This document shows positions 35,374 through 57,188 of a DNA stretch of 64,000 bases, piece after piece. The stretch comes from Candidatus Omnitrophota bacterium (lineage in GTDB: Bacteria; Omnitrophota; Gorgyraeia; Gygaellales; Profunditerraquicolaceae), in NCBI GenBank assembly GCA_028715415.1, contig JAQURX010000001.1:154584-218583 (forward strand), in the 5' to 3' direction. Position 1 is the first letter of the stretch. Each line of letters begins with the position of its first letter. A model generated the notes under the pieces. The model searched no databases, had not been told where the DNA came from, and saw only the letters and a program-made list of their open reading frames with translations. A program made the position numbers and the translations under genes.

Positions 35374-35382
35374 TTATTTTTT

Positions 35383-36867: not shown

Positions 36868-36877
36868 AATTAGAGGT

Positions 36878-37597: not shown

Positions 37598-37599
37598 AG

Positions 37600-38047: not shown

Positions 38048-38101
38048 TTTTTATATTATAATATTGTTTGTTGGGCGAGTAAAGATAAATTTATAAATCT
38101 A

Positions 38102-38938
38102 TTAATGCCAGAGGGTAGCAGATAAATAGTCTTTCCAGGTAGAATTGAATTCTTCTAAAGATTTAAAGCCATAGGTTTTCTTGAATGCGCTAAACCAGTC
38201 TTGGTTAATCCCTAATTCTCTTAGCGCCCGGCAGCAATCGCCAAATTTATCTTTTCCGTATACTTTGATGAGAAAGTCTATAATGCTAGTTGATTCGGCA
38301 TAAAAAATATCCGGCATTAAAACTCCTCCGCGGGACATTTTCCCAAGGTCTTCCAAAGGCAAAAATCCGGTTTTGTTGATAAGCCATTTTGCGACAAGAA
38401 GCCTGTCTGGTCTATTTTTCTTTTCTAAAAAACAGGCAACTCCCTCGTCGAGCCAAAGGGGTATTTTCTTTTTGTATCCGACAAATTCACGGAAAATGAT
38501 ATGGCCTAATTCGTGAGGCAGGATTGTATCAAGGAAATCTTGCATATTCATATAGGAATAAATTTCACGTTTCGTTGCGTGCACTCCACCGGTGGACCAT
38601 TCCGGGTAATTCGTTTCATTTTGATAGGTTTCCTTATCTTTGTATAAATAAATCTTAGCGCGGCTATCCCAAGTCCAAAATTTACTGTAACGGATGAACC
38701 CTAGTTCTTCAGCGATATTTTTATAATAGTTTTCGGCGTGGTCAAGAATTTCATTAACATATGTTAATGAAGCATTCTGAAAGTATAAAACAAAATGTTC
38801 GCTTTTTTTGGTTTCCCAAAAAGAGGTTTTGATTTCAGCCTGGCAGGTGGAGTAAGAGATGAGAAAAATTATAGTCATTGCGAGAAGTGAGCGAAGCGAA
38901 CGACGAAGTAATCTAAGACTATAATCTATGGATTTCAC
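38102..38938 (-). CDS. Secreted putative HExxH zinc metallopeptidase-like protein
   Basis: Signal peptide. HELGH motif with a downstream E (WLDEG). Confidence 0.45.
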   Translation of the reverse strand: MKSIDYSLRLLRRSLRSLLAMTIIFLISYSTCQAEIKTSFWETKKSEHFVLYFQNASLTYVNEILDHAENYYKNIAEELGFIRYSKFWTWDSRAKIYLYKDKETYQNETNYPEWSTGGVHATKREIYSYMNMQDFLDTILPHELGHIIFREFVGYKKKIPLWLDEGVACFLEKKNRPDRLLVAKWLINKTGFLPLEDLGKMSRGGVLMPDIFYAESTSIIDFLIKVYGKDKFGDCCRALRELGINQDWFSAFKKTYGFKSLEEFNSTWKDYLSATLWH

Positions 38939-38960
38939 TTTTGGTTGGCTAAAAGAGAAT

Positions 38961-39788
38961 TTATGATTTTGGTTCTTCTTTTGGCTTCTCTTCTTCGTTT
39001 AATATCTTATCAATATCTTTCGCTTCAAATTCCTTCTCTCCCTCTTCTTCTTTCTCGAGGGGCTCTCCAGGAGTTTCCTCTCCTTCTTTGGCAGGTTTAA
39101 AGAAAGTATCTTCTTCTTTAATGGTTTTGATTTGTTTCTGCCAGATCATGTAGAAGCTCCCTCCTAGGATGCCTAAGAATAAAACAATAATAATAATAAT
39201 TTTCCAAACTGTAGATGAAGGAAAGAGCTTAACTTGATTCATGAAGCTGCGCGCTAAGACTAAGTCGGATTTTACCGAATCAAGGATTTTTAAGTTTTCT
39301 CTAAAGTCTGAGATATGGCGTTCAGGATTAGCTGGAGAGCTTAGTTGGTTTTCCTGGACTTGGTTTAATTTTGATTCAATGTTGTTTTTTAGGAAAGAGA
39401 TTCTATCGGAAAATTCAGTATTTTTTAGTAAATCATAAAGTTTGTTAATTTCTGTCTTTAGAGGGGTAATTTCAGTTTCGGGAATAGTCCAGATGTCGCG
39501 GATTTCAATATCCCTTTCAACAATTTCTCCCGGTTTTAATTCATATTCACCATAGATGTAGTAGGAGCCTTGTTGAGTGTCGTAGGCAATCTCAAGGTCT
39601 CCTTTATCAACTACGTTCTCAGGCTTAGCTTCTTTGGGCAGGTATGCTTTTACAGGGACTCTTTGGACTTGTTCTTTGGATGGGTTAACAGCGATTACCT
39701 TTAAAACGATGTTGGCATAAGCTTGGGTAGAAAGTGAAATAAAAAGGCATAAAAAAACTCCTACCATATAAAATTTAAATCTTCTCAT
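38961..39788 (-). CDS. Bitopic membrane protein: signal peptide, ~185-aa periplasmic domain, TM helix, acidic E/K-rich cytoplasmic tail
   Basis: Starts 12 bp after the giant-gene stop. TM segment VWKIIIIIVLFLGILGGSFYMIW. Tail EEGEKEFEAKD...EEPKS. Confidence 0.4.
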   Translation of the reverse strand: MRRFKFYMVGVFLCLFISLSTQAYANIVLKVIAVNPSKEQVQRVPVKAYLPKEAKPENVVDKGDLEIAYDTQQGSYYIYGEYELKPGEIVERDIEIRDIWTIPETEITPLKTEINKLYDLLKNTEFSDRISFLKNNIESKLNQVQENQLSSPANPERHISDFRENLKILDSVKSDLVLARSFMNQVKLFPSSTVWKIIIIIVLFLGILGGSFYMIWQKQIKTIKEEDTFFKPAKEGEETPGEPLEKEEEGEKEFEAKDIDKILNEEEKPKEEPKS

Positions 39789-39799
39789 TTTGCTCCTCT

Positions 39800-42700
39800 T
39801 TATTTATACTCATACCAAGTCTGCGTGACTGGTTTATTGGCAATATTATCCACCATTTTCTTATTTAATTCAAGCGTTGCTTTTAATTCTTGAGACTTAT
39901 TCTTTAAATAATCAATATCATTCTTTTTCTCAGCAGTGACCTGATATAGTTTTTCTAGATTAACTCCTGCATCTCCGGAAATCTGCTTGATTTCTTTTGA
40001 TACGCTCTTTAACTGGCTGTAAATTGAGTCTAACACGTTAGCAGATGCAGCTGCATCTTTAACATCTTTTACTAGGCTCTTGCCTAATTGTGAGAGCGCT
40101 GTTTCAATTAAGGAGAACTGAGTTTTTAAGTTGTCTGCAACATCTCTTAAGGTTGAGATGCTTGAAGTAGCCCCCATGACCGATGCAACGTTTCCGGCTA
40201 TTTGTTCAAGGTCAGCTTTGATTACTGAGATGATCATAGCATCCACCGTTCCGTAAGTAGCCTCAGAGCAAACTATTGTAAAGTCTCCTTTGCCCCATCC
40301 ACCATCGAATAAGACAGGGAACTCGTATATAGCTACTTCAGAAGTAGAACTGCTAGTTATCGGTTTCATATTTCCGGTTAAAACTAATTTGTTTTCTGCA
40401 TCATAGACTTGAATAGTTGGCTGAACGCCGGTATATGAACGGAAGCGGATAACCAAATCTTTTGTTGAACGAATAGTGTTATCTCTATTAAGAATTTCAG
40501 ATTTTTTAATTGTAGTTACTTCTTTTTGAATCGTTTGTACTGCTGGAACGATTGTGCTCGTAGTCGTAGATAATATCTGTGAAGTATCACTCTTGACAGA
40601 GGCAACTTGAGTATCTATTTTATCTTCAATTGACTTCTTAGCTTTACCTACTTTATCCGCAATGTCATCAACCTTTGTTTCAATTGTTGTTGCTGACTGT
40701 TGTAAGCTTGTTAGTTGTGAAGTTTGCTGTGCTTGTTCAACAGCCTGTGAAATATCTATTGAGGCTCCTGAAGTATATTGTCCTGCACTGTAGTTAATAA
40801 TTGCTTTTACGAAATAATGTTTTCCTGTGGCTAAACCGGTAGCTTGCCAATTAAACCAGAATATGCCTTTATTGTCACGATAATATAAGCTTCCCATTCC
40901 AGGTTCAGTAGTAGATAATGTTTTTACTAAGGTTCCATTATCATAGATTTCCAAGGTAGCTGATTTGAGGTCGTTTAAAATTTGTTGTTTGATTGTATCA
41001 CTGTCAGAATCAGATGGCCCCATTAATTTTCCTCTTCTCTCTAACCATGTGGAAGCTCTTAGTGTGTCTGTAGCTGGATTATAGCTGGTTGATAATAAAA
41101 CGTGCCATTCAACCTGAGCGCTTATTTCATTTTCAAGAAGAACTGTTTGTATTGTATCACCATCAGCGCGCCAATCAGCTGCGCGTGCAATGTAGCCTTT
41201 TTTGGACCATCTGGTAATATAATTTCCAGCTGGGTAGTCCCTAGTTTGAGGTGAAGATAAAAGAACAGCGTTAATGTTCGTAATATCAACTAACCATCCG
41301 GTTTGGTCTTCTTTTACTCCTAATTCGTCCAAATGTCCATGTGTATCGTAGTCAACAACGTCCCAAGTGATATGGTAATAGTCTGCTTTGAATTCAGGAG
41401 ATTCAATAAAAACTGTAGGATCATTTGCATTGGTTATTTTAAATCTACAGTGTTCACTCCTTGGTTCCGGAATTGTCATATTGCATTGGCCTGCTGTAGC
41501 GCCAGTATTATTGATTGTTACGGTTTTAGTATTATCCCATGAGGTACCATTAAAATATTCAAATATAACCTGTGAGATACTGCCTTTTGTAGTCCAAGTA
41601 AACGTCTCTGTTTTTCCTACGATCTTTCTCTTTTGAGCTTCGGTATCTAAGTTAGTGATTACGAAAGCACCTTTAAACCTTATATCATTTGTTGAGCTAG
41701 CAGTAATATCGGCCCTTTCGTTGTTATTTTGGTCAATCATTGTTACTTTGATGCGTATTTTGCGGCTAATTAATACATCATTTGGAATCGTCCAAGAGAA
41801 ACTATTAGTTTGGTTAGGTGCACAGTCAATAGTAGCAATAGGATATGTGATTGCAGGAGTATCTGATTCAAAATATGAAAGGCGTACTTTATTCAAGGAT
41901 AAGCCTTTTGTTCTCCACTGAATAGGAAGTATTTCTCCAACCTCATATTCTGTTTTTGCTTCTGTTCCTAAAGGAGCAATTAGTTCAAGAGCTGGCTTAG
42001 GAAGAATAATTACGCTCTTTAGTTCAGACTTGACCTTTAAGTTTAGAGGGCCATAATTTGATAAGCCGTCCTTAGCTATTAGCTGAATTGGAATTTCTGG
42101 TTGGCCTTGTCTGCCTAATAAAGAGAATAAATCAGGTATTCCTGTTCCTCCAGGTCCGGCCCATGTGTATGAACCCATACCAGCCACATTGTCATTAGGT
42201 AAACCAAAGGCAATAGAAGTAAATGAGCCGTCCGGCGGGGTCGCTGAAGTATCAACGGTATATTGCAAAGCAATACTGTCAGGGTTGATGTAACCTTCAG
42301 TAGTCCATGTTATTGTTGGCTTCTCTCCAACTGCCCAATATACTCCTGTGCCAGAAGGATATGTAAGATTTATAAGCGGAATACCTATTTCAAAGATTTC
42401 TTCGTTGCTTGTTTCCCCAAAGGCGTTAGGTTCATCGGATTTCCACTTAACGTTATCAGTTATCAAGATTTTACAATTATTAGATGGAATGGTATTCTTC
42501 TGAATATCCCAAAGGAAAGTCCCTGTGTTGCTTAAATGAAGAGCAACAGGTGAACCGTCTTTATTAAGAATATCTTCATAAGGCCCTCCATTAACTGAAT
42601 ATTGAATTCTTAAGTCGTTGTGTGTAACTCCTCCATTATCATGCCAAAGAATAGGGTATTGTTTTCCTATGCGTAGGCAGTTTGTGCCTCTTTGTACATG

Positions 42701-45700
42701 GTTTGGTGAGTCTATGAATAACTGTGGTTTAGGAAGCACAATAAATGGTTGTTCAGTGTCTCCAAATACTTTGTAGTTTGTGCCTGCTCCTAATCCCCAA
42801 TAAATATCGTTAACTCTTACTTTTACTAACCCTTGAGCTTCAAGTGGCAAAGTCCAATTTATCGAGGTAGTTGTTGGCCCCCAATATTCAGGATGACCTG
42901 GATCATATGGGACTGGTGGATTAATAGTTTGACTAGTTATAAAATTATCTTTTGACCATTGGACTATGAAAGGTCCTCTTAATTTACCAAGCGAAGTCCA
43001 ATTGATAGTTCTAGTTTCTGTTACTGTCCATGGCTGGTTGCCATCAATTCTGGAGACTGTTATTACAGGGTATAGGATAGAGAATAGCTTTGATTCTCTT
43101 TTGTATTCCGTTGGTATGCTTGGCAATTCTATAGGCCTTTTAATTACTATATAGGCGGTTCCTGGAGAATAGGTGTCACCTACTGTCCAGTCAAAAGAAC
43201 CTTCAGAATTCAATGGCCCGCCAGTATCAATGTTATGCCAATTTGTTCCATCAGTATAAGTTAGCACAACTCCATCTGGAATGTAACCTGCTGTAGTCCA
43301 TTGAATTGTGTAAGTATCACCCATGTATAGAGTTTCAGAAGCAGCATCCGGATTCGGTTTAATAAAAACAAGCACAGGCTTACCAACTCTGAAATTAATT
43401 TCTTTAGATGCGCCTGAACCTCCATCTGCTATTGGGTCATAAATTCTGATAGTTGCTTTATCATTTTGATCATCAGGATCGTTAGGTAAAGCATCAGTTG
43501 GGACCATCCAGTCAAAACTCCCCTGGTCTGTATCTAGAATGCTGGAGCTTGTAATGGGGTTGTGAATAGCAGTGAATTCGTTGTTCGTTCTATTTCTCCA
43601 TTCAAAAACCAGTTTCTTAATTGCTTTTTGTGCTCCTCCAGTTGTTTGCCAAGATATTGGATGGCCTGTTGTTCCGACGACCCATGAGTCGTTTGTAGTC
43701 GGAGAAACAATAGTTATCGTTGGTTTTGTAATTGTAAAGTTGCTATTTGATGGATCGGATACATCCTCGGGTAGCCAAGAAGTATCAACAATTTTTAGTT
43801 TAACTTGCTGCAAGGAGTTTTGTCCTTCAGGAACGATATCTCTTGGAACTTGCCATGGAAGCGTGCATTGTGAATAACCAACCTCATCTACTTTTACAAT
43901 ATCCCCATTATTAAGGTTAGTTATTTTTATCCATGAGCCTGCGGCTCCACCGTTAGTTGAGTAATAGAATTCCAAAGAGTCATTTTTGATGGCTCCGATA
44001 TTGCGCCATACAATATTATGGGTTCCATGAGCATACCAAGTTTCTGTGCCATTTGGAACTTGTAAAGCTATGTGTGGAGTACCGAAGCTTAGTTTTCCGG
44101 ATAAACCAGATACTTTTGGTGTAGAAGTAGGAGAATCTTTAATTTCGACTTTTATATAGGCATTAAAAGTTTGTGTTGTTGGAATTTGGAGATATGTTGA
44201 ACCAGTATTATCTATTGCTGCTAGAGGACAAGTCCAAGGCCCATTCTCTCCGGCTGTTGAATAATAAATGTATGTTTTACCTGAATAATCAGGCCCGGGT
44301 GTACCTCCAATCTTAATAAAGTTATTACCGAAAGTTTCCCATTTGATTTCATATATTTTACCCATAGTTAAGGTTGCGCCGTCAGTTTGGTCAGGCGGGC
44401 TAATGATGTTTAATTTTGGCAGATTAAGGATTTCAAATGGCCCTACAGAAGTTTGAGGCTTTCCTTGTAGGGTGGTTGTGCTCCCGTTTTCTCCTTCATC
44501 TGTTATTCTTAACCAAACATTTTCACCAACAGCTTCAAGAGGAATATTTGTCCATGTATATTTTCGCTCTACATTTGAAACATCGCTATCGATAGTTGTC
44601 CAGGTGCCGTTAATTCCATTAGTTGAATCAATAGAATAGTCAATTTTTAGATAGTTACTTATTGTTCCGCTTGTGCTCCATTCAATAATATTGGTGTCTC
44701 CCTTAACCCATTTTGTAATAAAAGGAGATGGTGAGCTTATGCTTATTGTAGGTTTGTTTACATAGAAATCAATAGATTCTCCGGTACAAGGATTACTTTC
44801 AATTGTTCTTGCCCCATTTTGAGCAACTCTATTAGACAATGCCGTGCCAATAACCTGAACTCTGACAGGTAAGTCTATTCTTGGAGGAATTGCATCTAAA
44901 GGAACAGTCCATGTATAGCTTCCAATCGTAGAAGAATTTGGAGTAGGTCCGACAGTACCTATAGGAATAGGAGTAGGAGTAATATCTCCATAAGAGGTTT
45001 CTTCAGCTGCGTTATATTTTAGATATTTTAGAGTAACATTAGGCCCAAACATTTTTTGGTTCGTTGCCCAGTTAATTACTAATGGCTCTCCTGCTCTTAT
45101 TGCTGTTAAGCCTTGCGGAAGAGTTACGGTAATATTAGGGGCTGGAACAATGGCAAATGATCCGTTTAGGGTATCAATTATGGTTGCTCCTACGCTATCC
45201 CAATATTTCCCCGCGTCTACAGGTGAGAATATTTTAATCTGGCATTCATTGGATATTGTTGCAGGTATAGCCCAGCTTTTGTTTCCGCTGGCAGCGTCTA
45301 AGTTTGCACCAATAAATGTCCAGGTAGAAAAGACGTTTTGAGCGTTTTTATATCTATAATATATTGAAAGAGGATGTATTTCTTTTCCCGGAGGTAAAGG
45401 CGGTAATCCATAAACATCCCAGAGAATGAAGTTTTCTTTCCCTGCTTCCCAGATATCGCCGTTTATCGGAGAGGTTAATTTTAATGACAGGACTCTTAAG
45501 TCTGTTGGAGAATCCGCGACAATGTGGTCAAAATCATTAGAAGTTATTCTTATGCGAGATTGCTCTGAAAGAATTAAAGGAATAGTTGTCGCATCCGAAG
45601 GCACTGTCCATGTCAATAAACCATTGTTGGGTGCGTTTTCGGCGATTGTATAGTAATCATTTTTATCTAGACGATGAAGTTGAATTTTAACCGTGTTAGT

Positions 45701-48700
45701 TGCTCCATTAATTCCATCAGAATTCCAGGTTAGATCATAAGTAGAGCCAATATTTAAAATAGATACAGCTGCTCCGGTAGAGTTTAATTTTACAGCATTA
45801 ACTGTAAGATAAGGGTTCACATATTCAATAACTAAGTTATTTAATACAGGTTTTTCCTGGCCGTCAGAATACAGTATTGCTTTGTATTGAAGGTATCTGG
45901 TGTTATGCGCTTCTGTATGGGCTGAATTAATAATTGTATAATAATCCGGTAGCTTAGAGTATGCTGGGTTAACTGGGGTAGAGCCGGTTTGATCGGTATA
46001 GAAGGTTAAGTCTCCTCCGAGAGTTACACTAGCTGAAGCTAATCTTGGAGTAGCTTTTCCGTCTCTAGAATGTAAAAATGCGCGGTAATAAAAATCTCCG
46101 GAATTAAAACCCGCAATATCTCGTTGGAATACGGTTAATCTTGCAGGAGTGATTTCTGTGGCGAGATTGGCTTGGGCATATCCGCCAGTTGTGGCTAATT
46201 GCCAAGCTGCCCCTGTCCAGTAATACCACTGCCATCCGTCGCGGGAAATCTGGTATTTAATTTCAAGTTCATCGCCTGTTCCCGAAGGTATGTCTTTTAC
46301 CGGATTAAACGAATCAATCTTGACTCCCTTATTTAAGTTGAAATCATAATTGTAGTATACGCCCATTACCGGTTGAATGCATGGGTTATCAGTGGAATAT
46401 CCATAGTTAACATTTGAGTAGTCTTGTTCGCTCATATAGGTTAAAGATTGGATTATGTCTGTAGCAGTTCCAAAGTTATAATTACTTCTGACTTCCTCTT
46501 GTGTTAAAGCTCTGTTATAAAAACGAACTTCATCAAGCCTTCCGTTTAAATAGCCCCACGAACTGCCAAAAGTATTACCAGAAGTGTAGCCGTTAGCAAA
46601 GCCCAGGCCTAGAGGAGCATTAGTATTTAATGCGTATTTTGCTCCAGATCTTGAATTAACCAGTCTGCCGTCTAAATACATTTTAGAATTGCGTTGGAAA
46701 GCCTGGGCTGTGTTTCCGTTATAAATCACTGACAAATGGTGCCAAGTGTTTAAGGAAGGCAAAGTTGTGCTAATCGTGTATTCAGTGCCATCTTTACAAC
46801 CTAAGTAGAAATATAAATAGCCATATGCGCTTCTTACAAAGAATCCCCAGTATCTGCCGTTTAAGTCGTTATAATAATCGGCTTTTCCAATTAGAACTCC
46901 CGGTTTATTGCTTTTTAACAAGAACCATAAATCAACTGTAAAGTCTGTGTTAAAGTTTTGTTCACTGTTTGGAGGAGATACTATTGAACCGAAGTTATCT
47001 GCTTGGGGTATTGAGCCATACGTATTGATTCCATTAAGGTTTAAACAGTTGCCAACCTTGCCCGGCAGCCATGAGCCATTTACTATTCCTTCGGTTGAGC
47101 CGGTGTATATTTTACCGTTATTTAGAGTATCTTCAGAAGAATCTTTTACTAATGTTGAATTCCCCTGTCCGTCTTCAAAAGACCAATATCCAATTAAATT
47201 AGTAGCATTAATAAAGTTATTCAATGAAAAATTAGGTGAAGCAGCGCTAAGGTTACCATAATAAAGATATATTCGTTGTGTATTCTTAAAAGAAAGCAAA
47301 TAAGGTATTTTGAGATAGAAAGAAGCGGTTTTATTTACGGAATCAAAACTGATAACCTTATATTTAAGTTCTTGATATCCGTCAGAAAATCTTAAGTCTG
47401 CTCCATCCGGGCGAGCCTGATTATTAGTAACGCGTTGCCAAAAAGTCGGATTGCTTGAAAGGTCCATTTTCACTAATCCTACCCAATCTTTTCTATCCTG
47501 TAAACATGAATATGAGATTTCAATCGGTTGCCTGTATGACCAGCCGCTGGTAAATAAGGAAATCTGATTAGAGTTTGTATCTACTGTGGAAGTAGGGTTT
47601 GGTGAAACATATTTATGGAATTCTTTGTGAGCTTGAATTTCAATTTGAGTTAAGGCTTTATCGTAAAGCCGAACTTCATCCATTATACCGTTAAAACAGA
47701 GGTTGCCCGCCGTATCTGCGCTTAGCCAGAAATTGGTACTATTTGAAATATCTCCTAATGGGTTGCTGCCGCTTACTAAATTAAATGCAGCTCCGTTTGG
47801 CAAGCCATCAACGAAAAATCTTCCTGTATTAGTGCTGCCATCTCTTGTGATTACCAATGCGATGTGATGCATATTGCCATCATTTATGTTGTTTGGGCCG
47901 ATAGATGAGATTATATTAGTTCCGTCATACATTTTAAGTGCGGGCCTACCTTGTTCAACACCAAATACAAATCCTTTGGTTGAATCGTATTTTCTTGCAA
48001 TTGTTCCATATAATGCAGAGGTTTGGATCCAAGCTTCAAGGCTAAAGCTTTGGTTAAAATCAAAGTCTTCCCAATCGCGGTTTAGAATTGTTCCATACCC
48101 TTCGCAATCAACATATTGATTTATCCCATTAAAGCTTAAGGCTTTTCCAATTTTTCCCGTAACCCAAGGAGAGTTATTATATAATCTTCCAGAATTCTTC
48201 CCTGTTACATCTATGATTGTATTTCCCGCACCTTCTTCAAAATCCCAATAAGCAATTAAATTAGCGCTATCTTTGTGAACATCCATTGTGCGGCTAAAGT
48301 TGCTTTCTGCGTCTATAATTTTATTTCCATAATACATTTTTATGTTGGTTATGCCTGTAGGCAGCGTCGGCATATTTACCCAGATTACTGCGTTATTGGA
48401 AGGGTGCCTATATCCTCCATATGTAAATGATTCAATGTAATATTCTAATCTTTCTCCGTTTGCATCAACAAACTTGATGTCATCTCCTTTGATCTGAGCG
48501 TAATCCCAGTAATTATACAAAGAACTGTTGATATTTACACGGACTTGATAACTATCCAGTTCATCTCCTGTATTATTTATCTGAATATTCTTCCAGTAAA
48601 AAGCAGGTTTTGTTATTACTGCTCCTCCAGTTGGGGCCAGATTGATGTTTTTGTCCATTGCATAGTCAACTACATTAGTAAAATCGTAATTAAATATTTG

Positions 48701-51700
48701 GCTGGTTAGTGATGGTCCTTTCCATTCTCCCCAGCTTATGCCATCAGTAGAAGATCTTAATTGGAATCTAACATCGGTTCCGGGCAATAAGCTTTCGCCC
48801 CAGTTTACCTTTAAGGCTCTGCTATTATCTGAGCCTAAGTTATAAGTGTTTGAAGTAATCTCTTGTTGGGCAACCGGGTATCGTGTGTAGTCTAGTTCAA
48901 GTTTGTGCAAGATTGGTACTTCGGTACTGTTGTTGCTGCTAAAGTTGAATTTATATTGGACGTATTTATCTTTTGATTTTGCAGAAGCAGCGCTATTTAT
49001 ATTAGCTGTATATTTAGTCATGCCATCAACTACTTGGGGTGCCGAAATCTGCCTAAGGTCTATAGTTTTACTCCAGGCAGTCGCGTTACTCATGTTAGAT
49101 TTATCGCTTGTCCTTATGGATGGGCTTATTGATTGCAGGCCATTTGTAAACCATCTAAATTGCCCCCAGTCCGCATGTTTTCCAATTTCTTTTACGCTTG
49201 ATATATAATCACCAAATGAAAAGGCGTATAGTTTTAAGAAATCATATCTGCTTTGCCCTCTTAATGCATAGAAATATTTTCCTCCAGGGCAGGCCAGGGT
49301 TCCGGGAGCTTTTATTCCAACCGGTAAATTAGAGAATTCTGACCAGGTATTATTCACGAAATCGTATCTTAATACAACAGAAGAAGAATAATCTTGGTTA
49401 TAGTTTGTGCCTTGTAAGACATAAAAGTAATTTCCAAATCCCGGATAAATTAATTTACTGTTGTTATTATAAAATACCGCAGGAGCAAGTGCGAATTCTC
49501 CCCAGGCAGCGGGCCCGGCAAGATTATCTTTTGTAGTGTCAAATTTATATATCGTTGGAGAATTTGCGCCTCGCATTACCCATATGTAATTACCAGAGCC
49601 CGGATAAACCATACTAGCTCCCCAGCCTATTGTATCTGGGGTTGTGCTAAATAATGTCTGCCAGCTGTCATTTATCAAGTTGTATTTTAATACCGTTGTA
49701 TTACCGCTGGGCAATGCATAAATAGAGTCGTCTTTCCATACTAAGGAAGCGCCATAACTCCATGATACCGGAGAAGATCTTTTGCTTTCCCATGTATTAT
49801 CTGCTATTGAATAACGGTAAAAACCAGTTGAACTGACTCCTTGTGCAACATATATATAAGCGTTTCCTTGGAATTCTGCTATTGTCATAACAGGTGACCA
49901 GTTGCTTAAGTCAAAATTCGGGGTTTCCAAATTATCCCATATATCCGTTTCTGTATTATAGCGTAAAAGTTTTGTTCCCGAGCCTGTATAGTTTAATACA
50001 AAGACGTATCCTTTGTAACCAATTGCAGCGCTTCTGTAGCTTAATAGTTCTGGAATCCCTTGAGGTTCGTTCCATTTGTTATCATTTGGAGAATAGCAGT
50101 AAAAACGGTCATATTGAGGATTGTAAACATAAAGCATTTCTTTTGTTCCTCCCTGTCCGTCATCTACTGTTGCTGATACGATTGAATGGGCTGAACCATT
50201 AGAGTCAGTATTGTTAAAGGGTAGTTTAGCTATGTTTTCCCATTGTTTTGAAGTGTCTGCTTCATTAAAGTTATAACGCATTAAATAAGACGCAGGGTCT
50301 CTTGGGATACAATAAAGATATCGTCCATCATCTGGCGATGTTGAGTAAAAGAGAACTGCGCCAGTGTTTGCTACCACAGCTTCATTGTCTACGGAAATCA
50401 TACTCTGGGAAGAAATGTTTGAAGTTGGGTTAGGCATACTCATTTCAAAGAAATTTGTGTCAGTTTTATCTGGGTTAACGAAGAAGAGCCTTGGTAAACC
50501 ATCTTTGTTAAGGCCATATGTTAAAACATTGCTTCTGTAGAAATTTTGAGTAAAAGGTAAGGTCATGATTTCAGACCAGTTTCCGGAAACAGTATCAAAT
50601 TCGTAGAATTTATTTCTATTTGTTTTAAAGTTGCCCACTCCGGCAAAGAACAATGATTTTCTTTCGGGGCAATATATAATTTGAGTTCCAAGGGCAAAAG
50701 TTTCCGGGCAGCTGTTTGCAGTAAGGCTCCATGTTTTAGTGTTTAAATTATATTTATATAATTTATTTGTGATCCTGCCTCCAGTTGCATAGATTGTGCC
50801 TAAATCTCCTTGTGTACTGCTTGGTACATACTCTATTTTGGAGCCATTAATTTTAAAAGGAGTGCGGATAATATCTGCCCAGCGCCCCTTAGCAACAGAA
50901 TACACCCAAATTATATCTGTAAGAGTATTAGTTGCGTAAGGGCCATAACAAACATAAATATTTTTTTGGCTATCAATTGCTGTATTCCCCGTGCGATATC
51001 CTCCCATAGGTGTATAATCCATTAATGGGTCGCTCCATGCAGAAGCGAATAGATCACCGGAATTTACAAAATCAAAATCAAACTTATAGAATGATGGGTC
51101 TGGGTATGGAAGTGTATACAAACCTTTGTAATCACCTGTTGCTACATGGCAAAGTCCCATGCGATATTGGGAAAATGGAGTAGCCCCGGCAGAGGTCTTG
51201 ATTAGTTCGTTCCATGTTCCTTGAATGTCCCCAAGAGAGCCGGCTTCCAGGCAATATCTAGCCCAGGTAAAGCCGTGTTGTTCGTCGGCATGTCCGGAGA
51301 AAGCATAGATGTATTTTCCTTTGGTTCCTAAATCAACGTAGGTTAAACTGTTTCCTCCTGAGTAACAGGCCAAATAAACCGGAGAATCTGCCAATCTCTC
51401 CCAAGTATTAGTGGTAATGTCATATCTATAGAGTATGTAACTATCTCCATTTGTAGCGTAAATATATTGTCCACTACCCGGGTAAACTAAGTTTGTCCCC
51501 GGGGTAAAATACGGCCAAGTTGTTGGAGGGCTCGCCGGTGCTAAGTTAACCCATCCATTAGTAGTATCAAAGCGATAAAAGTCTCTTGTTCGGGAATTAG
51601 AGCTCCATTGAGTGCTCCAGTTTGTACCTCGGGTTGCATATATATAAGGAATATCCATATTTGGTGTGCCTACAGATGCAGGAACGCCAACAATACAAGA

Positions 51701-53341
51701 ACCCGCTTCTTCATAAAATATATCAGGATCTATGCCATCGCTTGCAGAATAATTAGGCCTTTGTGCTTCAGGAAAATTGGCTAAAGTATTCCATACGTCA
51801 GATCCCGGTGTTTGTCCGATTGCATAACGATAAAAACCATTTGAACTATTTCCCGGGAAAAGATAAATATAATCAGTGTTGTTATCTCTTAAATAAGCCA
51901 TTTTATTGCCTGATTCGGCTACTGTAGCAGGAGTAGAGGCCAAATTTTCCCATTTATTATTAGACAGGCTGTAGCGATAAAATTTACGTTGATTTCCGGA
52001 TGGGGCATAATAAATATAGTCGCCAAAACCCGGGTAAAACATGTTTAGGTTTCTTGAATCTGTTTTATATGGTGGCGCGCAGAGCGTATTCCATCTACCC
52101 GTTGCAGTATTAAAACTCCATGGTTTTATATAGTTATAACCGGAAAAGAAAAAAGCATCTCCTGTTGAGTCGGATTGATTTGAGGTATCCGCATAGTACA
52201 TGATTGCTTTATAATTGCTTTTATCTGCAGGAAGCTCTGGAAGCTGTTCCCAATCAGCAGAGCTGTTTGTGTAATCCAGCCTGTAGAAGGTTCTGTAATT
52301 CGTGACATTGTAATCATAACCACCGTCCCCTCTGAGGGTAGCAGTTCTATAGGCGCTGTTAACATAGATATATTTTCCTCTGCCGGGATAATAGAAACCA
52401 GAGTAGCTTGATATTACGTTGTCAAAAGTGTTATTTTGATAAGGCAGCGTCTTTCCTGTTCCCCATGAGTTATCTACTAAATTAAATTTATATATAGATT
52501 TATTTGCGTTTCCTGGAGTGCAGTAAATATACTGGCTTCCTTGAGGATATAATAATGTTCCTCCGTAATTTACATTAAGATCAAGTGAGGTTGAGGTGGA
52601 CCAGTTAGTGCCTCCTACTGAGAGGTCGTATTTCATAAATTTAATGGTTTCTCCACCTATAGTTGCAAATAGCTTAGGAGTGGGATTGAATTGGTTTTGT
52701 TCAACATAAACAATACTCGCCCCCCAGCCGGCAGGCGCTAATAATTTTGCTAACAATACCCACTCGCCTAAGGGGTGTTCGCCATTTGGTAGTGTATAGG
52801 TATATGTTTCAAATGTACCACCTCCGCGGATGGCAAAAATTTTAGTTCCATCAGTGGCCATACTTACTCCAAGCCCCGCAGCAGCTGGTAAAGGCTCAAG
52901 CATCTCCCATTTCCCGTTAACAATATTGTATCTGCCAAAGTATCTACCATCACTTTCTCCGAATATGCAATATACGTATTCGTTAAGTTTTACATAAGCT
53001 GAATACAGCCCCGGTTGAGGTAAAGAATGAAGTGCTGACCAGTCTCCAAGATTCGTAAATGCATCTTTAGTCTCAATTTTAAGCTTTAAACCGGTTGCGC
53101 CATTCTTTTCAACGTTATTAAGAGTTCCATTAAAATCAGCAGAGCTCGTATCGGTTTTAGTAAATGTGTCAGCTAAAAGGGAAACATTGTTTCCTGTTGA
53201 GATATTGCTGGTTTTAGAAGAATAGCTTCCAGCAGGCCAGGATGATTGTGTTACAGTGGCAGCTTTGACATCTGAGAAAATACCGATTTGGCCAAAAATC
53301 AAAGCTTCTGCAAGAATTATTCTTAAGATTTTATTGAACAT
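39800..53341 (-). CDS. Giant secreted multidomain protein (4,513 aa): signal peptide, about 25 Kelch-like beta-propeller blades, 2 LamG/ConA-like domains, about 16 tandem Ig-like beta-sandwich repeats, coiled-coil C-terminus
   Basis: Single uninterrupted ORF with RBS GGAGG. Signal peptide MFNKILRIILAEALIFGQIGIFSDVKA. Recurring xYIYaxxGxxxxxFYRYdxxxNtW blade pattern. LamG signatures (AYWDFEEG...MDEVRLYDKALT and GYWSFEDG...LDEVRFYNRALT). Repeats ending ...s(F/Y)(T/D)W(T/M)VP.DA. Confidence 0.9.
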   Translation of the reverse strand: MFNKILRIILAEALIFGQIGIFSDVKAATVTQSSWPAGSYSSKTSNISTGNNVSLLADTFTKTDTSSADFNGTLNNVEKNGATGLKLKIETKDAFTNLGDWSALHSLPQPGLYSAYVKLNEYVYCIFGESDGRYFGRYNIVNGKWEMLEPLPAAAGLGVSMATDGTKIFAIRGGGTFETYTYTLPNGEHPLGEWVLLAKLLAPAGWGASIVYVEQNQFNPTPKLFATIGGETIKFMKYDLSVGGTNWSTSTSLDLNVNYGGTLLYPQGSQYIYCTPGNANKSIYKFNLVDNSWGTGKTLPYQNNTFDNVISSYSGFYYPGRGKYIYVNSAYRTATLRGDGGYDYNVTNYRTFYRLDYTNSSADWEQLPELPADKSNYKAIMYYADTSNQSDSTGDAFFFSGYNYIKPWSFNTATGRWNTLCAPPYKTDSRNLNMFYPGFGDYIYYAPSGNQRKFYRYSLSNNKWENLASTPATVAESGNKMAYLRDNNTDYIYLFPGNSSNGFYRYAIGQTPGSDVWNTLANFPEAQRPNYSASDGIDPDIFYEEAGSCIVGVPASVGTPNMDIPYIYATRGTNWSTQWSSNSRTRDFYRFDTTNGWVNLAPASPPTTWPYFTPGTNLVYPGSGQYIYATNGDSYILYRYDITTNTWERLADSPVYLACYSGGNSLTYVDLGTKGKYIYAFSGHADEQHGFTWARYCLEAGSLGDIQGTWNELIKTSAGATPFSQYRMGLCHVATGDYKGLYTLPYPDPSFYKFDFDFVNSGDLFASAWSDPLMDYTPMGGYRTGNTAIDSQKNIYVCYGPYATNTLTDIIWVYSVAKGRWADIIRTPFKINGSKIEYVPSSTQGDLGTIYATGGRITNKLYKYNLNTKTWSLTANSCPETFALGTQIIYCPERKSLFFAGVGNFKTNRNKFYEFDTVSGNWSEIMTLPFTQNFYRSNVLTYGLNKDGLPRLFFVNPDKTDTNFFEMSMPNPTSNISSQSMISVDNEAVVANTGAVLFYSTSPDDGRYLYCIPRDPASYLMRYNFNEADTSKQWENIAKLPFNNTDSNGSAHSIVSATVDDGQGGTKEMLYVYNPQYDRFYCYSPNDNKWNEPQGIPELLSYRSAAIGYKGYVFVLNYTGSGTKLLRYNTETDIWDNLETPNFDLSNWSPVMTIAEFQGNAYIYVAQGVSSTGFYRYSIADNTWESKRSSPVSWSYGASLVWKDDSIYALPSGNTTVLKYNLINDSWQTLFSTTPDTIGWGASMVYPGSGNYIWVMRGANSPTIYKFDTTKDNLAGPAAWGEFALAPAVFYNNNSKLIYPGFGNYFYVLQGTNYNQDYSSSVVLRYDFVNNTWSEFSNLPVGIKAPGTLACPGGKYFYALRGQSRYDFLKLYAFSFGDYISSVKEIGKHADWGQFRWFTNGLQSISPSIRTSDKSNMSNATAWSKTIDLRQISAPQVVDGMTKYTANINSAASAKSKDKYVQYKFNFSSNNSTEVPILHKLELDYTRYPVAQQEITSNTYNLGSDNSRALKVNWGESLLPGTDVRFQLRSSTDGISWGEWKGPSLTSQIFNYDFTNVVDYAMDKNINLAPTGGAVITKPAFYWKNIQINNTGDELDSYQVRVNINSSLYNYWDYAQIKGDDIKFVDANGERLEYYIESFTYGGYRHPSNNAVIWVNMPTLPTGITNIKMYYGNKIIDAESNFSRTMDVHKDSANLIAYWDFEEGAGNTIIDVTGKNSGRLYNNSPWVTGKIGKALSFNGINQYVDCEGYGTILNRDWEDFDFNQSFSLEAWIQTSALYGTIARKYDSTKGFVFGVEQGRPALKMYDGTNIISSIGPNNINDGNMHHIALVITRDGSTNTGRFFVDGLPNGAAFNLVSGSNPLGDISNSTNFWLSADTAGNLCFNGIMDEVRLYDKALTQIEIQAHKEFHKYVSPNPTSTVDTNSNQISLFTSGWSYRQPIEISYSCLQDRKDWVGLVKMDLSSNPTFWQRVTNNQARPDGADLRFSDGYQELKYKVISFDSVNKTASFYLKIPYLLSFKNTQRIYLYYGNLSAASPNFSLNNFINATNLIGYWSFEDGQGNSTLVKDSSEDTLNNGKIYTGSTEGIVNGSWLPGKVGNCLNLNGINTYGSIPQADNFGSIVSPPNSEQNFNTDFTVDLWFLLKSNKPGVLIGKADYYNDLNGRYWGFFVRSAYGYLYFYLGCKDGTEYTISTTLPSLNTWHHLSVIYNGNTAQAFQRNSKMYLDGRLVNSRSGAKYALNTNAPLGLGFANGYTSGNTFGSSWGYLNGRLDEVRFYNRALTQEEVRSNYNFGTATDIIQSLTYMSEQDYSNVNYGYSTDNPCIQPVMGVYYNYDFNLNKGVKIDSFNPVKDIPSGTGDELEIKYQISRDGWQWYYWTGAAWQLATTGGYAQANLATEITPARLTVFQRDIAGFNSGDFYYRAFLHSRDGKATPRLASASVTLGGDLTFYTDQTGSTPVNPAYSKLPDYYTIINSAHTEAHNTRYLQYKAILYSDGQEKPVLNNLVIEYVNPYLTVNAVKLNSTGAAVSILNIGSTYDLTWNSDGINGATNTVKIQLHRLDKNDYYTIAENAPNNGLLTWTVPSDATTIPLILSEQSRIRITSNDFDHIVADSPTDLRVLSLKLTSPINGDIWEAGKENFILWDVYGLPPLPPGKEIHPLSIYYRYKNAQNVFSTWTFIGANLDAASGNKSWAIPATISNECQIKIFSPVDAGKYWDSVGATIIDTLNGSFAIVPAPNITVTLPQGLTAIRAGEPLVINWATNQKMFGPNVTLKYLKYNAAEETSYGDITPTPIPIGTVGPTPNSSTIGSYTWTVPLDAIPPRIDLPVRVQVIGTALSNRVAQNGARTIESNPCTGESIDFYVNKPTISISSPSPFITKWVKGDTNIIEWSTSGTISNYLKIDYSIDSTNGINGTWTTIDSDVSNVERKYTWTNIPLEAVGENVWLRITDEGENGSTTTLQGKPQTSVGPFEILNLPKLNIISPPDQTDGATLTMGKIYEIKWETFGNNFIKIGGTPGPDYSGKTYIYYSTAGENGPWTCPLAAIDNTGSTYLQIPTTQTFNAYIKVEIKDSPTSTPKVSGLSGKLSFGTPHIALQVPNGTETWYAHGTHNIVWRNIGAIKNDSLEFYYSTNGGAAGSWIKITNLNNGDIVKVDEVGYSQCTLPWQVPRDIVPEGQNSLQQVKLKIVDTSWLPEDVSDPSNSNFTITKPTITIVSPTTNDSWVVGTTGHPISWQTTGGAQKAIKKLVFEWRNRTNNEFTAIHNPITSSSILDTDQGSFDWMVPTDALPNDPDDQNDKATIRIYDPIADGGSGASKEINFRVGKPVLVFIKPNPDAASETLYMGDTYTIQWTTAGYIPDGVVLTYTDGTNWHNIDTGGPLNSEGSFDWTVGDTYSPGTAYIVIKRPIELPSIPTEYKRESKLFSILYPVITVSRIDGNQPWTVTETRTINWTSLGKLRGPFIVQWSKDNFITSQTINPPVPYDPGHPEYWGPTTTSINWTLPLEAQGLVKVRVNDIYWGLGAGTNYKVFGDTEQPFIVLPKPQLFIDSPNHVQRGTNCLRIGKQYPILWHDNGGVTHNDLRIQYSVNGGPYEDILNKDGSPVALHLSNTGTFLWDIQKNTIPSNNCKILITDNVKWKSDEPNAFGETSNEEIFEIGIPLINLTYPSGTGVYWAVGEKPTITWTTEGYINPDSIALQYTVDTSATPPDGSFTSIAFGLPNDNVAGMGSYTWAGPGGTGIPDLFSLLGRQGQPEIPIQLIAKDGLSNYGPLNLKVKSELKSVIILPKPALELIAPLGTEAKTEYEVGEILPIQWRTKGLSLNKVRLSYFESDTPAITYPIATIDCAPNQTNSFSWTIPNDVLISRKIRIKVTMIDQNNNERADITASSTNDIRFKGAFVITNLDTEAQKRKIVGKTETFTWTTKGSISQVIFEYFNGTSWDNTKTVTINNTGATAGQCNMTIPEPRSEHCRFKITNANDPTVFIESPEFKADYYHITWDVVDYDTHGHLDELGVKEDQTGWLVDITNINAVLLSSPQTRDYPAGNYITRWSKKGYIARAADWRADGDTIQTVLLENEISAQVEWHVLLSTSYNPATDTLRASTWLERRGKLMGPSDSDSDTIKQQILNDLKSATLEIYDNGTLVKTLSTTEPGMGSLYYRDNKGIFWFNWQATGLATGKHYFVKAIINYSAGQYTSGASIDISQAVEQAQQTSQLTSLQQSATTIETKVDDIADKVGKAKKSIEDKIDTQVASVKSDTSQILSTTTSTIVPAVQTIQKEVTTIKKSEILNRDNTIRSTKDLVIRFRSYTGVQPTIQVYDAENKLVLTGNMKPITSSSTSEVAIYEFPVLFDGGWGKGDFTIVCSEATYGTVDAMIISVIKADLEQIAGNVASVMGATSSISTLRDVADNLKTQFSLIETALSQLGKSLVKDVKDAAASANVLDSIYSQLKSVSKEIKQISGDAGVNLEKLYQVTAEKKNDIDYLKNKSQELKATLELNKKMVDNIANKPVTQTWYEYK

Positions 53342-53390: not shown

Positions 53391-54398
53391 TTATTTATTT
53401 GGCACATTAAGTTTTTCCTCAAGCTGTTTTGTTTTTTCTTTTTCAATCGCAAGCCTTCTTTGCATGGCTTCCAAAGAAACTTTATCAGCGCGGTATTTCT
53501 CATCCAAATTCTTTATTATAACTGAGTTTTCATGTGCTAGTTTAAGGTTAATTTCACCTTGTTTCTTAAGCATCTCTTTTTGAAGATTTCTTTTAAGATT
53601 AAAAGTGACTTGAGAAAAGTATACAGATATAAAGATCAGTGCTATTACTGATAAAGCCCCAGTAACAAGAAAGAACCTTTTTTTTCTTTTAAATTCCGCA
53701 TCAGGTATAGAGCTATCAATTTCAGATTTATATTTTTCAACTTCAAGTTCAACTTTTTCTATAAAACCGTTTGTGCCAAGTACTGTCTTTTTATTGAGCT
53801 CTTTATTAATAAAACCACTTCTATCTAAAGAAAATTCTTTGATAAATTCTTGATGATCTTTATTTTTTAGATATTTTTTAGTTTCTTCAATTTCACTTGA
53901 GATATTAATGTCTAAACTTGGTTTACCTAAATAATTAGCGAAACTACAATAAGGATAAAGTTCCGGCTCTTTAACAATATTTAGGATTTTAGGATTAAGA
54001 TGAATATAGGAAGCAACCTCTAAAAGATGAGTTTCTTTTTCAACTAAAACCAGTTTAAACCTTTCTTGGAAAAGATGGCCTTTTCTTTCATATTTTGAAT
54101 TGAAATATTTTGTATAGTTTGCATTTAGGTCATGCATAATATCAGAAATTGTTAGTCCAGCTTTTAATTCAATCAATAAATGTAGATGGCTTGGGATCAG
54201 GCAGAAGGCGAATAATTTAAAACCATATTGTTCTTTATATTTCTTTAATAATTCAGCGTAGGTTTTATAATCTTGGACATCTCTAAAAATTTCTTCATTA
54301 TTATCACCGCGGCTTGTTACGTAGTATAGTGCGCCTTCAATAAATTTTTTAGGGACTTTAATCATTTTAAGCCACCTTTTCTTTTTAATGCGTTGCAT
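53391..54398 (-). CDS. IS200/RAYT-like Y1 HuH transposase-domain protein fused to a TM helix and C-terminal coiled coil
   Basis: N-terminal ~140 aa with Y1 motifs (YYVTSRG...FAFCLIPSHLHLLIEL and catalytic-Tyr region GHLFQERF...VASYIHLNPK). Then TM FFLVTGALSVIALIFISVYF and a coiled coil. Confidence 0.6.
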   Translation of the reverse strand: MQRIKKKRWLKMIKVPKKFIEGALYYVTSRGDNNEEIFRDVQDYKTYAELLKKYKEQYGFKLFAFCLIPSHLHLLIELKAGLTISDIMHDLNANYTKYFNSKYERKGHLFQERFKLVLVEKETHLLEVASYIHLNPKILNIVKEPELYPYCSFANYLGKPSLDINISSEIEETKKYLKNKDHQEFIKEFSLDRSGFINKELNKKTVLGTNGFIEKVELEVEKYKSEIDSSIPDAEFKRKKRFFLVTGALSVIALIFISVYFSQVTFNLKRNLQKEMLKKQGEINLKLAHENSVIIKNLDEKYRADKVSLEAMQRRLAIEKEKTKQLEEKLNVPNK

Positions 54399-54444
54399 TT
54401 TTATTGCAACGTTGGTTTATTGCGTGGTACTTTGCAATAATTTT

Positions 54445-54475
54445 AAAAAAAAATCCCAGGCATTTTACCTGGGAT
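54445..54475 (-). terminator. Intrinsic terminator forming the expression platform of the c-di-GMP riboswitch
   Basis: On the minus strand: AATCCCAGG-UAAAAUG-CCUGGGAUU followed by U9. Lies between the aptamer and the start codon at 54398. Confidence 0.75.
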
Positions 54476-54495
54476 TGGTTGTCTTAAGTTTCAAT

Positions 54496-54583
54496 CTTCG
54501 GTAATCTGCCTGTCCCGGAATTTTCCCGGGATGCACGACTTTGCGTCCCTTGATTACTCAAGGTTTGCCTTTTCGGATAAAGA
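54496..54583 (-). promoter_or_regulatory. Cyclic-di-GMP-I (GEMM) riboswitch aptamer
   Basis: Minus-strand RNA CCGAAAAGGCAAACC-UUGAGUAAUCAA-GGGACGCAAAGUC...CCCGGGAAAAUUCCGGGA-CAGGCAGAUUACCGAAG. Carries the two GEMM-I signature blocks (GGCAAACC and GGGACGCAAAG) flanking a GNRA-loop P2 hairpin, a P3 hairpin and the 3' UUACCGA.G element, as in V. cholerae Vc2. Confidence 0.8.
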
Positions 54584-54601: not shown

Positions 54602-54630
54602 AGTATACCATACGCTTGATTTCTTTTCAA
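54602..54630 (-). promoter_or_regulatory. Sigma-70-type promoter for the riboswitch-led transcript
   Basis: Minus strand TTGAAA-17 bp-TATACT, ~15 bp upstream of the aptamer. Confidence 0.55.
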
Positions 54631-57174: not shown

Positions 57175-57188
57175 TTTCCCTTTCCTTA

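Follow-up and report, generated by a model that had tools for sequence, protein, structure and literature searches.

Omnitrophota are uncultured, ultra-small bacteria that are thought to live on other cells. How they make that contact is an open question, for which the published pointers are type-4a pili (T4aP), an odd neighbouring F-type ATPase and poorly conserved giant open reading frames (ORFs). Here, a 13.5-kb gene encoding a protein of 4,513 amino acids (aa) was analysed together with its surroundings in a stretch of 64,000 nucleotides from a Candidatus Omnitrophota bacterium (GenBank assembly GCA_028715415.1, contig JAQURX010000001.1, positions 154,584 to 218,583), referred to below as the window, in whose numbering all coordinates are given. 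Fibrillar adhesins, as reportedly defined by Monzon and Bateman, are a class that combines a stalk with adhesive domains. In the LapA-LapG-LapD system, a giant repeat adhesin is retained at the surface under cyclic di-GMP (c-di-GMP), with a dedicated protease and a membrane protein.

F-type ATPase genes are co-located with T4aP genes in Omnitrophota, and these ATPase/T4aP loci were proposed to be symbiosis loci (Seymour et al. 2023, PMC10066038). The same study put forward large ORFs of the phylum that contain LamG or discoidin domains as adhesins. Its 'giant ORF' category starts at 20 kb, so that a gene of 13.5 kb lies outside it. Giant genes near loci resembling type II secretion systems (T2SS) are also described (10.1101/2023.11.21.568195; 10.64898/2026.06.07.730766), with proteins of >30 kaa beside T2SS/type IV pilus (T4P) genes in West-Roberts 2023 (10.1101/2023.11.21.568195) and of at least 10 kaa in Nielsen & Lui 2026 (10.64898/2026.06.07.730766). 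Kelch, riboswitch and ATP synthase are not mentioned in the giant-protein context in West-Roberts 2023, and no paper pairing Omnitrophota with Kelch was found in the literature searched. DUF2341 proteins in T4P loci were proposed as pilus-associated adhesins (PMC4858521). In Clostridioides difficile, the adhesins CD2831/CD3246 and the Zn-metalloprotease ZmpI/PPEP-1 are controlled by c-di-GMP riboswitches, and the adhesin is released from its anchor by ZmpI/PPEP-1 (PMC6366702, PMC6447587).

A giant adhesin-like Omnitrophota ORF beside a type IV filament machine is therefore of an already known kind. What is new is the Kelch-giant family to which this protein belongs, its C-terminal module, a probable membrane anchor that occurs split or fused, a peptidase partner, the riboswitch and the fixed place in an ATPase/T4aP locus. 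A candidate adhesin or host-contact protein had been proposed in an earlier model reading of the letters alone (the sequence-only reading), which agrees with the anatomy described here and with published views (PMC10066038; 10.1101/2023.11.21.568195). We infer, with a probability of roughly 0.6, that the giant protein is a cell-surface fibre in two pieces, either a fibrillar adhesin or a host-contact protein. A putative binding head of about four Kelch propellers and two DUF2341-LamG lectin-like units would point outwards and be presented to another cell by an envelope-spanning stalk (13 Ig domains and the C-terminal module), for which typical domain sizes give a length of ~80 nm or more.

The giant gene is a genuine ORF and no assembly artefact. 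It runs from an ATG, ~8 nt downstream of a Shine-Dalgarno sequence (GGGAGG), and its GC level is even along the whole length. Giant repetitive ORFs in metagenome-assembled genomes are often mis-assembled, and an exact-sequence lookup of the 4,513-aa protein in an indexed protein collection returned no record; both would suit an artefact of several merged genes, or a pseudogene. Neither tandem repeats nor long direct nucleotide repeats were found in the gene, however, the sole pair being 48 nt at 79% identity, which makes repeat-driven mis-assembly unlikely. Positions 36318-42781 (~6.5 kb, including the 3' end of the gene) are identical to an independent Logan contig from run SRR22315506. The closest ortholog, at locus L003, aligns colinearly with residues 746-4513 (53% identity) and contains no stop codon up to the end of its contig, and the orthologous ORF is open across the entire 10-kb upstream flank (>3,800 aa) in 14 related loci from 14 species-level genomes. 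Dozens of relatives of 4.0-5.7 kaa have the identical domain order. On these grounds mis-assembly via repeats was ruled out, the ORF delimited in the sequence-only reading was upheld, and the probability left to an artefact is negligible.

The domain order of the giant protein is given in Table 1. The putative Sec signal peptide (MFNKILRIILAEALIFGQIGIFSDVKA|A) was recognised by inspection from its basic n-region, hydrophobic core and AxA-like cleavage site, and is the sole strongly hydrophobic 19-aa window in the protein. A conserved L-I-F-G-Q-I-G-P in the signal-peptide region of the giant protein and of its relatives P0012, P0164, P0172, P0178 and P0162 goes beyond generic hydrophobicity, has F-[VL]-Q-T-D-W-S-G-G after it in many relatives, and might be a specialised targeting signal. 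In the head, Pfam Kelch_6 and Kelch_4 matched at 61 and 46.6 bits, and a self-iterated hidden Markov model (HMM) returned 22 blades with room for 2-3 more in two gaps, roughly enough for about four propellers. Two DUF2341 domains (residues 1619-1692 and ~1979-2035) each stand N-terminal to a Laminin_G_3 domain (1756-1899 and 2124-2284). The stalk repeats have a period of ~105-125 aa and the pattern G..y.I.W...G...v.I.Y......w..I......G.Y.W.vP, and the first of them passes Pfam Kre9_KNH (PF10342) with 31.2 bits against a cutoff of 24.6.

The C-terminal 613 residues were modelled with AlphaFold2 (AF2) at a mean predicted local distance difference test score (pLDDT) of 68.9. The modelled order is three beta-sandwiches, an 80-residue helix (4199-4278), a further beta-sandwich (4289-4374), helices (4378-4502) and a disordered tail of 11 residues. 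According to this model the C-terminus is helix-rich, with two helical segments split by a beta-sandwich and no single continuous coiled coil. The giant protein carries no LPXTG motif and no C-terminal transmembrane (TM) segment, and no Pfam match to RTX repeats, a type I secretion system (T1SS) signal or a C-terminal beta-barrel was found in it. A PDB sequence search gave one weak Kelch match and nothing else.

Much of the sequence-only reading of this anatomy proved sound. The signal peptide was recovered, its count of ~25 Kelch blades in ~four propellers was fair, both LamG domains were there (the DUF2341 domains had been overlooked), and Pfam matches were obtained for each of the Kelch, LamG and Ig-like families it named. 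Its Ig-like repeats exist, although they number 13 and not ~16, are longer than the ~95 aa given, and occupy residues 2520-3975 instead of 2400-3800. The coiled coil of ~330 aa held as to helix content and failed as to continuity. LPXTG and C-terminal TM segments are indeed missing from the protein, yet to take this as the lack of any anchor would probably be mistaken, since the 275-aa protein described below appears to supply one in trans.

Domains of these kinds could also belong to a secreted degradative giant enzyme directed against prey cell walls, a role that has been proposed for far larger giants of the phylum. A link with cell-wall degradation has been made for giant genes by T2SS-like loci (10.1101/2023.11.21.568195; 10.64898/2026.06.07.730766), some carbohydrate-active enzymes have Kelch propellers and ConA-like folds, and a peptidase is co-transcribed with the gene. 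Searches of all 4,513 residues against Pfam, NCBIfam and PDB sequences turned up no catalytic family, however, and the giant protein has the architecture of a head-stalk-base fibre, with neither the many TM helices nor the SecA-DEAD domain described for those larger giants. An enzyme is accordingly regarded as very improbable.

The chief new finding concerns the neighbouring gene, which begins 11 bp past the giant stop codon and encodes a 275-aa protein. This protein is 100% identical to NCBI entry PHO70_00925 (Candidatus Omnitrophica bacterium) and has 195 homologs, none of them with a functional annotation. Its AF2 model (pLDDT 80.7, and >90 over most of residues 30-220) comprises a signal peptide, a beta-sandwich (27-96) with NIVLKVIAVNPS as its first strand, a three-helix bundle (104-185) and one TM helix (191-225), from which it is predicted to be a type-I (bitopic) membrane protein with its folded part outside the cytoplasm. 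Of 35 related loci (L001-L036, with the fusion locus L033 set apart), 33 have a homolog directly 3' of the giant gene, in 27 cases no more than 150 bp from the stop codon; only the truncated locus L031 lacks the partner gene. The cytoplasmic tail (residues ~228-275) is disordered and acidic, with a family-wide terminal D-I-x-K-I-[IL] that points to a binding partner in the cytoplasm and perhaps to control from the inside out.

At L033 the two genes are one. The giant ORF reads ...NEPVTQTWYEY-GS-VVLKAIVINPSK... into the partner with no stop between, and the junction falls at the predicted mature N-terminus of the partner, whose signal peptide has been dropped. Among the 147 best cluster representatives, 14 have the same fusion, including the full-length 4,564-aa P0158; with L033 this gives at least 15 relatives. 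A typical junction in the representatives reads ...EPVVQTWFEY-RS-VVLRALIINPSE..., and the partner segments of the 14 are 28-54% identical to the 275-aa protein of the window. The near-invariant tail of the giant protein is thus the junction point of natural fusions. Repeated clean fusions in frame are a classical sign of a physical partnership between the two proteins. Since the partner is fused to the giant tail at its own mature N-terminus, we consider it likely to be the membrane anchor of the giant protein. In its fused form the fibre is predicted to be a type-I membrane protein; in the split form the tail most likely docks beside the first strand of the partner's sandwich, which would leave the fibre anchored by its C-terminal end in the cytoplasmic membrane.

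The fusions also bear on whether the giant protein could instead be a pilus or pseudopilus tip adhesin analogous to PilY1/MshQ, exported by Sec and loaded on minor pseudopilins, with no anchoring by the 275-aa protein. Its gene does lie between the secretin genes and the gspE-gspG genes of a machine with MSHA-like traits (MshEN domain, AAA_22 ATPase, TPR proteins), its invariant C-terminus could provide a strand that complements a minor pilin, and there are prior views on DUF2341 in this sense (PMC4858521, PMC11809585). Against this, the tail has repeatedly become fused in frame to a TM-anchored protein, which indicates a membrane anchor and not a pilin partner, and the invariant neighbour is the anchor gene, not a pilin gene. 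Over the whole giant protein no Pfam or NCBIfam match to the PilY1/Neisseria_PilC beta-propeller domain was obtained and the MshQ model did not match, while the TafC model (NF052521) reached 52.4 bits, in the LamG region alone, against a cutoff of 410. A tip adhesin is for these reasons considered unlikely.

The C-terminal module defines a family. A search with the C-terminal 613 aa gave 11 unannotated homologs at 39-50% identity, all ending in ...NKP[VI]TQTW[YF]E[YF]K. A scan for the module with one genome per species gave 34 loci, labelled mostly Candidatus Omnitrophota/Omnitrophica and otherwise Planctomycetales/Planctomycetia or generic 'bacterium'. These labels, and the identity of the neighbouring protein with an Omnitrophica entry, bear out the suggestion in the sequence-only reading that giant proteins of this type occur in Omnitrophota. 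In an exhaustive profile search of 1.84 billion cluster representatives, re-scored with an HMM of the helical part alone, at least 42 representatives carried the module at their extreme C-terminus, 28 of them 3,994-5,743 aa long with a Met start. The order signal peptide, Kelch, mid1, DUF2341/LamG, mid2, Ig and C-terminal module is the same in P0164, P0172, P0178, P0249, P0208, P0192, P0205 and P0158. A word-index search with the N-terminal 600 aa gave one match, and the metagenome scan three N-terminal loci.

Relative to L003 (Table 1, last column), conservation is lowest in the fast-evolving head and highest in the base. A variable distal end with a conserved anchoring end is the pattern expected for a contact protein. 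A coat or S-layer-like envelope protein would also be conserved broadly across the phylum, as this family is; a base of coiled coil and beta-sandwiches, resembling the SlaB stalk, would then hold a propeller canopy with no specific host binding, and a giant protein of V. archaeovorus has been proposed as a coat former (PMC10066038). The fast-evolving head and the c-di-GMP riboswitch described below are nevertheless more in keeping with a contact factor used conditionally than with a coat made constitutively, and S-layer proteins are usually much shorter and strongly expressed from strong promoters of their own, so that we give a coat a low probability.

Several relatives have further peculiarities. 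At L002 3494-5237, immediately 5' of a split family member (1,536 + 530 aa), stand genes for bAvd, an RVT_1 reverse transcriptase and an FGE-sulfatase-domain protein, the signature of a diversity-generating retroelement, and L001 has a bAvd-like gene within its ATPase cluster (5688-6059). Two copies of the C-terminal module stand ~4-5.5 kb apart in L034 (6168-7415 and 10001-11239) and L035 (557-1783 and 6104-7342), with a single detectable anchor gene after the second copy; these tandem paralogs may share one anchor.

Table 1. Features of the giant-gene locus in the window, listed in the direction of transcription, with identity to the closest ortholog (L003) where determined.
Feature	Residues	Position	Strand	Basis or remark	Identity to L003
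Stand-alone PilZ protein		63074-63484	-	upstream of secretin region	
Upstream machine genes: AAA_22 ATPase, 215-aa protein without assignment, secretin, three TPR proteins		55018-60594	-		
Sigma-70-like promoter (TTGAAA, 17-nt spacer, TG-TATACT)		54602-54630	-	10/12 positions, extended -10	
c-di-GMP-I riboswitch aptamer		54497-54579	-	Rfam RF01051 (clan CL00126)	
Intrinsic terminator (11-bp hairpin + T9), putative riboswitch expression platform		54443-54476	-	hairpin -15.6 kcal/mol	
335-aa protein: Y1_Tnp/RAYT-like domain, TM helix, C-terminal coiled coil; operon gene 1		53391-54398	-	Pfam, motifs	
Giant gene, 4,513 aa	1-4513	39800-53341	-	single ORF, ATG start	
Putative signal peptide	1-27	53261-53341	-	inspection; kept in P0012 and full-length relatives	
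~22 Kelch-like blades	120-1393	49163-52984	-	Pfam Kelch_6, Kelch_4, Kelch_3, Kelch_1 and own HMM	47%
mid1, unannotated	1394-1618	48488-49162	-	no Pfam match; 26-33% identity in family members	
Two DUF2341 + Laminin_G_3 units	1619-2290	46472-48487	-	Pfam	46%
mid2, unannotated conserved segment	2291-2519	45785-46471	-	no Pfam match; 33-41% identity in distant members	
Stalk: 13 tandem Kre9/KNH-type Ig-like repeats	2520-3975	41417-45784	-	own HMM and inspection	59%
Family-defining C-terminal module	3976-4513	39803-41416	-	AF2 model and homologs	
C-terminal sandwiches					74%
Near-invariant tail KPVTQTWYEYK (NKPVTQTWYEYK)	4503-4513	39803-39835	-	homolog alignment	91%
275-aa partner, proposed anchor: signal peptide, beta-sandwich, 3-helix bundle, TM helix, acidic cytoplasmic tail		38961-39788	-	AF2 and synteny	
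Exported MA-clan Zn-metallopeptidase, 278 aa, HELGH motif		38102-38938	-	Pfam Peptidase_MA_2, 54.8 bits	
F-type ATPase genes: epsilon, c, b/delta fusion, alpha, gamma, beta		33089-38047	-	profile matches	
T4aP/T2SS-like genes: GspE/PilB with MshEN, GspF, PilM-N fusion, PilO, two minor pseudopilins, GspK-like, GspG		25970-33092	-		

The giant gene starts 49 bp after the stop codon of the 335-aa gene, and it is this gene, not the giant one, that the riboswitch directly precedes. The aptamer scored 66.1 bits with RF01051 (gathering score 35) over model positions 1-87 of 87. Homologous aptamers (61 bits) occur at the same position upstream of the giant gene in L038 and L039, and the alignment of the three sequences contains two-strand stem changes consistent with compensation. 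RF01051 is the best model for the window aptamer, unlike those of L038 (988-1067) and L039 (4339-4418), which are best matched by the c-di-GMP-I-GGC variant RF03167 at 61 bits against a cutoff of 59. The promoter is the best match in the region, and its -10 element is kept in both loci.

The terminator is present in every minimum free energy (MFE) fold of the leader, and L038 and L039 have a hairpin of other sequence with a T-run at its position. Its 3' arm is complementary to a segment of the aptamer (-14.0 kcal/mol in the window, -9.7 in L038/L039), the segments differing among the loci; examination of MFE folds and duplex energies for an ON or OFF sense of the switch gave no reading.

The 335-aa protein matched Pfam Y1_Tnp with 56 bits and NCBIfam REP_Tyr_transpos with 77.3 bits, below the cutoff of 80, and by inspection has HUH (HLH) and YIHLNP motifs and a TM helix. 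Two of the three N-terminal loci (L038 and L039) had enough upstream DNA to test the operon, and both share with the window the order riboswitch, Y1-like gene, giant gene. Their 345-aa Y1-like homologs (L038 1136-2173, L039 4487-5524) are 50-51% identical over the full length. A transposon insertion between riboswitch and giant gene was considered and rejected because both loci have, at this place, a homolog of full length that shares the TM helix and coiled coil. The protein looks like a domesticated, membrane-bound HUH protein. Y1_Tnp homologs occur elsewhere in the locus in L002, L034 and L036.

Beyond the 275-aa gene, after a gap of 22 bp, follows the gene of the 278-aa peptidase, whose HELGH motif and signal peptide were recognised by inspection; an MA-clan peptidase gene is also found downstream in 25 related loci. 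Since the gaps are of only 11 and 22 bp and a promoter-like site (38055-38083) then stands between the peptidase gene and the ATPase genes, the Y1-like, giant, 275-aa and peptidase genes are read as one predicted four-gene operon under riboswitch control. With a c-di-GMP-I riboswitch and a terminator at its head, its transcription should depend on c-di-GMP. The co-transcribed Zn-peptidase would mature, trim or release the fibre.

On either side of this operon lie T2SS/T4P genes, with the secretin genes upstream and the ATPase and gspE genes downstream, so that the T2SS-like cluster and the c-di-GMP riboswitch reported by the sequence-only reading are real. It had not mentioned the C-terminal module with its invariant tail, the two partner genes, the ATPase operon before gspE or the riboswitch as the head of a four-gene operon. 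Most related loci have giant, anchor, peptidase, ATPase, gspE and gspF in this order, and in L039 an AAA_22 ATPase, a 215-aa protein, secretin and TPR stand upstream of the ortholog in the same order as in the window.

Among the ATPase genes, alpha and beta pass the canonical AtpA/AtpD cutoffs and match these canonical models, not the Mycoplasma gliding-ATPase models, whereas gamma, delta, epsilon and c score below theirs; no a subunit was found in the cluster. The gene order is unusual for an F-type ATPase, and the cluster is wedged between the adhesin module and gspE, with atpD and gspE overlapping by 4 bp. The N-terminus of GspE/PilB (31419-33092, minus strand) matches the MshE-related c-di-GMP motif NF053729 at 64 bits (cutoff 38), and GspG scored 153.5 bits against an equivalog cutoff of 88.9. 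The secretin reached 189 with the MshL model, below the cutoff of 250, and no prepilin peptidase was seen in the window. Three tandem TPR paralogs (242, 221 and 267 aa; 55018-57174, minus strand) stand between secretin and riboswitch where L039 has one; the trio looks like a local triplication, possibly pilotin- or MshN-like. Past the pseudopilin genes, positions 23290-25936 (minus strand) hold genes for a LexA repressor, a 104-aa protein without assignment and a DinB/IMS translesion polymerase, and a 166-aa ORF, with no more than a HisKA fragment, separates gspG from lexA.

As the adjacent GspE-like ATPase has a c-di-GMP-binding MshEN domain, one signal may govern the synthesis of the fibre as well as its export. 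To judge from its predicted components, c-di-GMP may act on the locus at three levels, namely riboswitch, MshEN ATPase and PilZ protein. The features of a T2SS substrate are present, namely a putative signal peptide and linked genes for secretin, GspE, GspF, PilMNO, GspG, a GspK-like protein and minor pseudopilins. Export would begin with Sec, and passage of the outer membrane could take place via the flanking secretin and T4aP/T2SS-like machine, a route that we propose tentatively.

A surface fibre in two pieces has to be weighed against several points. Kelch and LamG domains occur too in enzymes and other non-adhesive proteins, and fold searches yielded just generic Ig-like and helical-bundle matches. 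The proposed anchor lies in the inner membrane of a diderm, so that a fibre of ~490 kDa must still cross the outer membrane, with the secretin as a presumed link. The T4aP/T2SS synteny could be inherited gene order without functional coupling, as an ATPase operon with its own promoter-like site separates the giant module from gspE. Conservation of the riboswitch rests on three loci, as the N-terminal word-index search gave one match and the metagenome scan three N-terminal loci; it was found just in the three closest loci and is absent from seven more distant ones, three of which include the gene start, and is hence no family-wide feature.

In a bolder version, the conserved Omnitrophota F-type ATPase/T4aP 'symbiosis' locus would have its working end in the giant protein, anchor and peptidase, and so form a new host-contact machine. 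The inner-membrane-anchored fibre would thread the flanking secretin, with its deployment or movement driven by the motor of the type IV filament, by the adjacent F-type ATPase or by both, and coordinated by c-di-GMP via riboswitch, MshEN ATPase and PilZ protein. The nearest precedent is that of the giant Gli 'legs' with an F1-like ATPase in Mycoplasma mobile. This version we consider a long shot.

For the two-piece fibre itself, the locus provides a well-conserved, tractable candidate contact protein inside an ATPase/T4aP locus, which at 4-5.7 kaa fell under the size thresholds of the published giant surveys. Its head-stalk-base anatomy, probable anchor (by natural fusions), dedicated peptidase and c-di-GMP riboswitch give handles for the symbiosis hypothesis. 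If true, a split or fused anchor would be a previously undescribed way to hold a fibrillar adhesin on a diderm cell.

Compared with known systems, the locus shares parts with each and coincides with none. As in PilY1/MshQ and MSHA, DUF2341 and LamG domains and propellers occur in a large Sec-exported protein within a type IV filament cluster that has an MshEN ATPase, an AAA_22 ATPase and TPR proteins, but the giant protein is four times larger than PilY1/MshQ and its conserved partner is a TM protein and no pilin. With the LapA system it has in common a giant repeat adhesin, a protease, a membrane protein and c-di-GMP; RTX/T1SS, LapG-type Cys protease and LapD-type GGDEF-EAL matches were not found, and regulation would be by an RNA switch. 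The likeness to CD2831/ZmpI of C. difficile consists in a surface-adhesin gene beside a Zn-metalloprotease gene, with c-di-GMP riboswitch control. In that Gram-positive species, however, two opposite riboswitches and sortase anchoring are used and the peptidase is of the M34/PPEP type, whereas in the Omnitrophota operon one class-I riboswitch would serve both genes and the peptidase is a Peptidase_MA_2 member, whose cleavage of the fibre is conjecture.

Like fibrillar adhesins, the giant protein has a tandem Ig-like stalk, together with a putative signal peptide, putative distal binding domains (LamG, Kelch) and a proposed anchoring function at the opposite end. Unlike them, it has no LPXTG motif, T1SS retention module, autotransporter barrel or SLH domain; its base combines helices and beta-sandwiches in a module that ends in an invariant tail and is presumably held by a separate or fused type-I protein, and its host is a diderm. 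Within the phylum, the described giants (Archaeovorin etc.) share with it the proximity of T2SS/T4P and pilZ genes, LamG-type domains and a proposed role in host or prey contact. Those giants have many TM helices, SecA-DEAD domains or enzyme arrays, while the members of the Kelch-giant family have 4-5.7 kaa and an N-terminal hydrophobic segment only, together with Kelch propellers, a family-specific C-terminal module and fixed partner genes; at 4,513 aa against >30,000 aa, with one hydrophobic segment and no SecA match, the giant protein lies outside the class of West-Roberts 2023. There is also a likeness in gene order to the loci of F-type ATPase and T4aP genes termed 'symbiotic' (PMC10066038), as the window too has ATPase genes abutting gspE/pilB, pilMNO and pilin genes. 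The giant-anchor-peptidase module is undescribed there, and in most of the loci compared here it is found immediately 5' of the ATPase.

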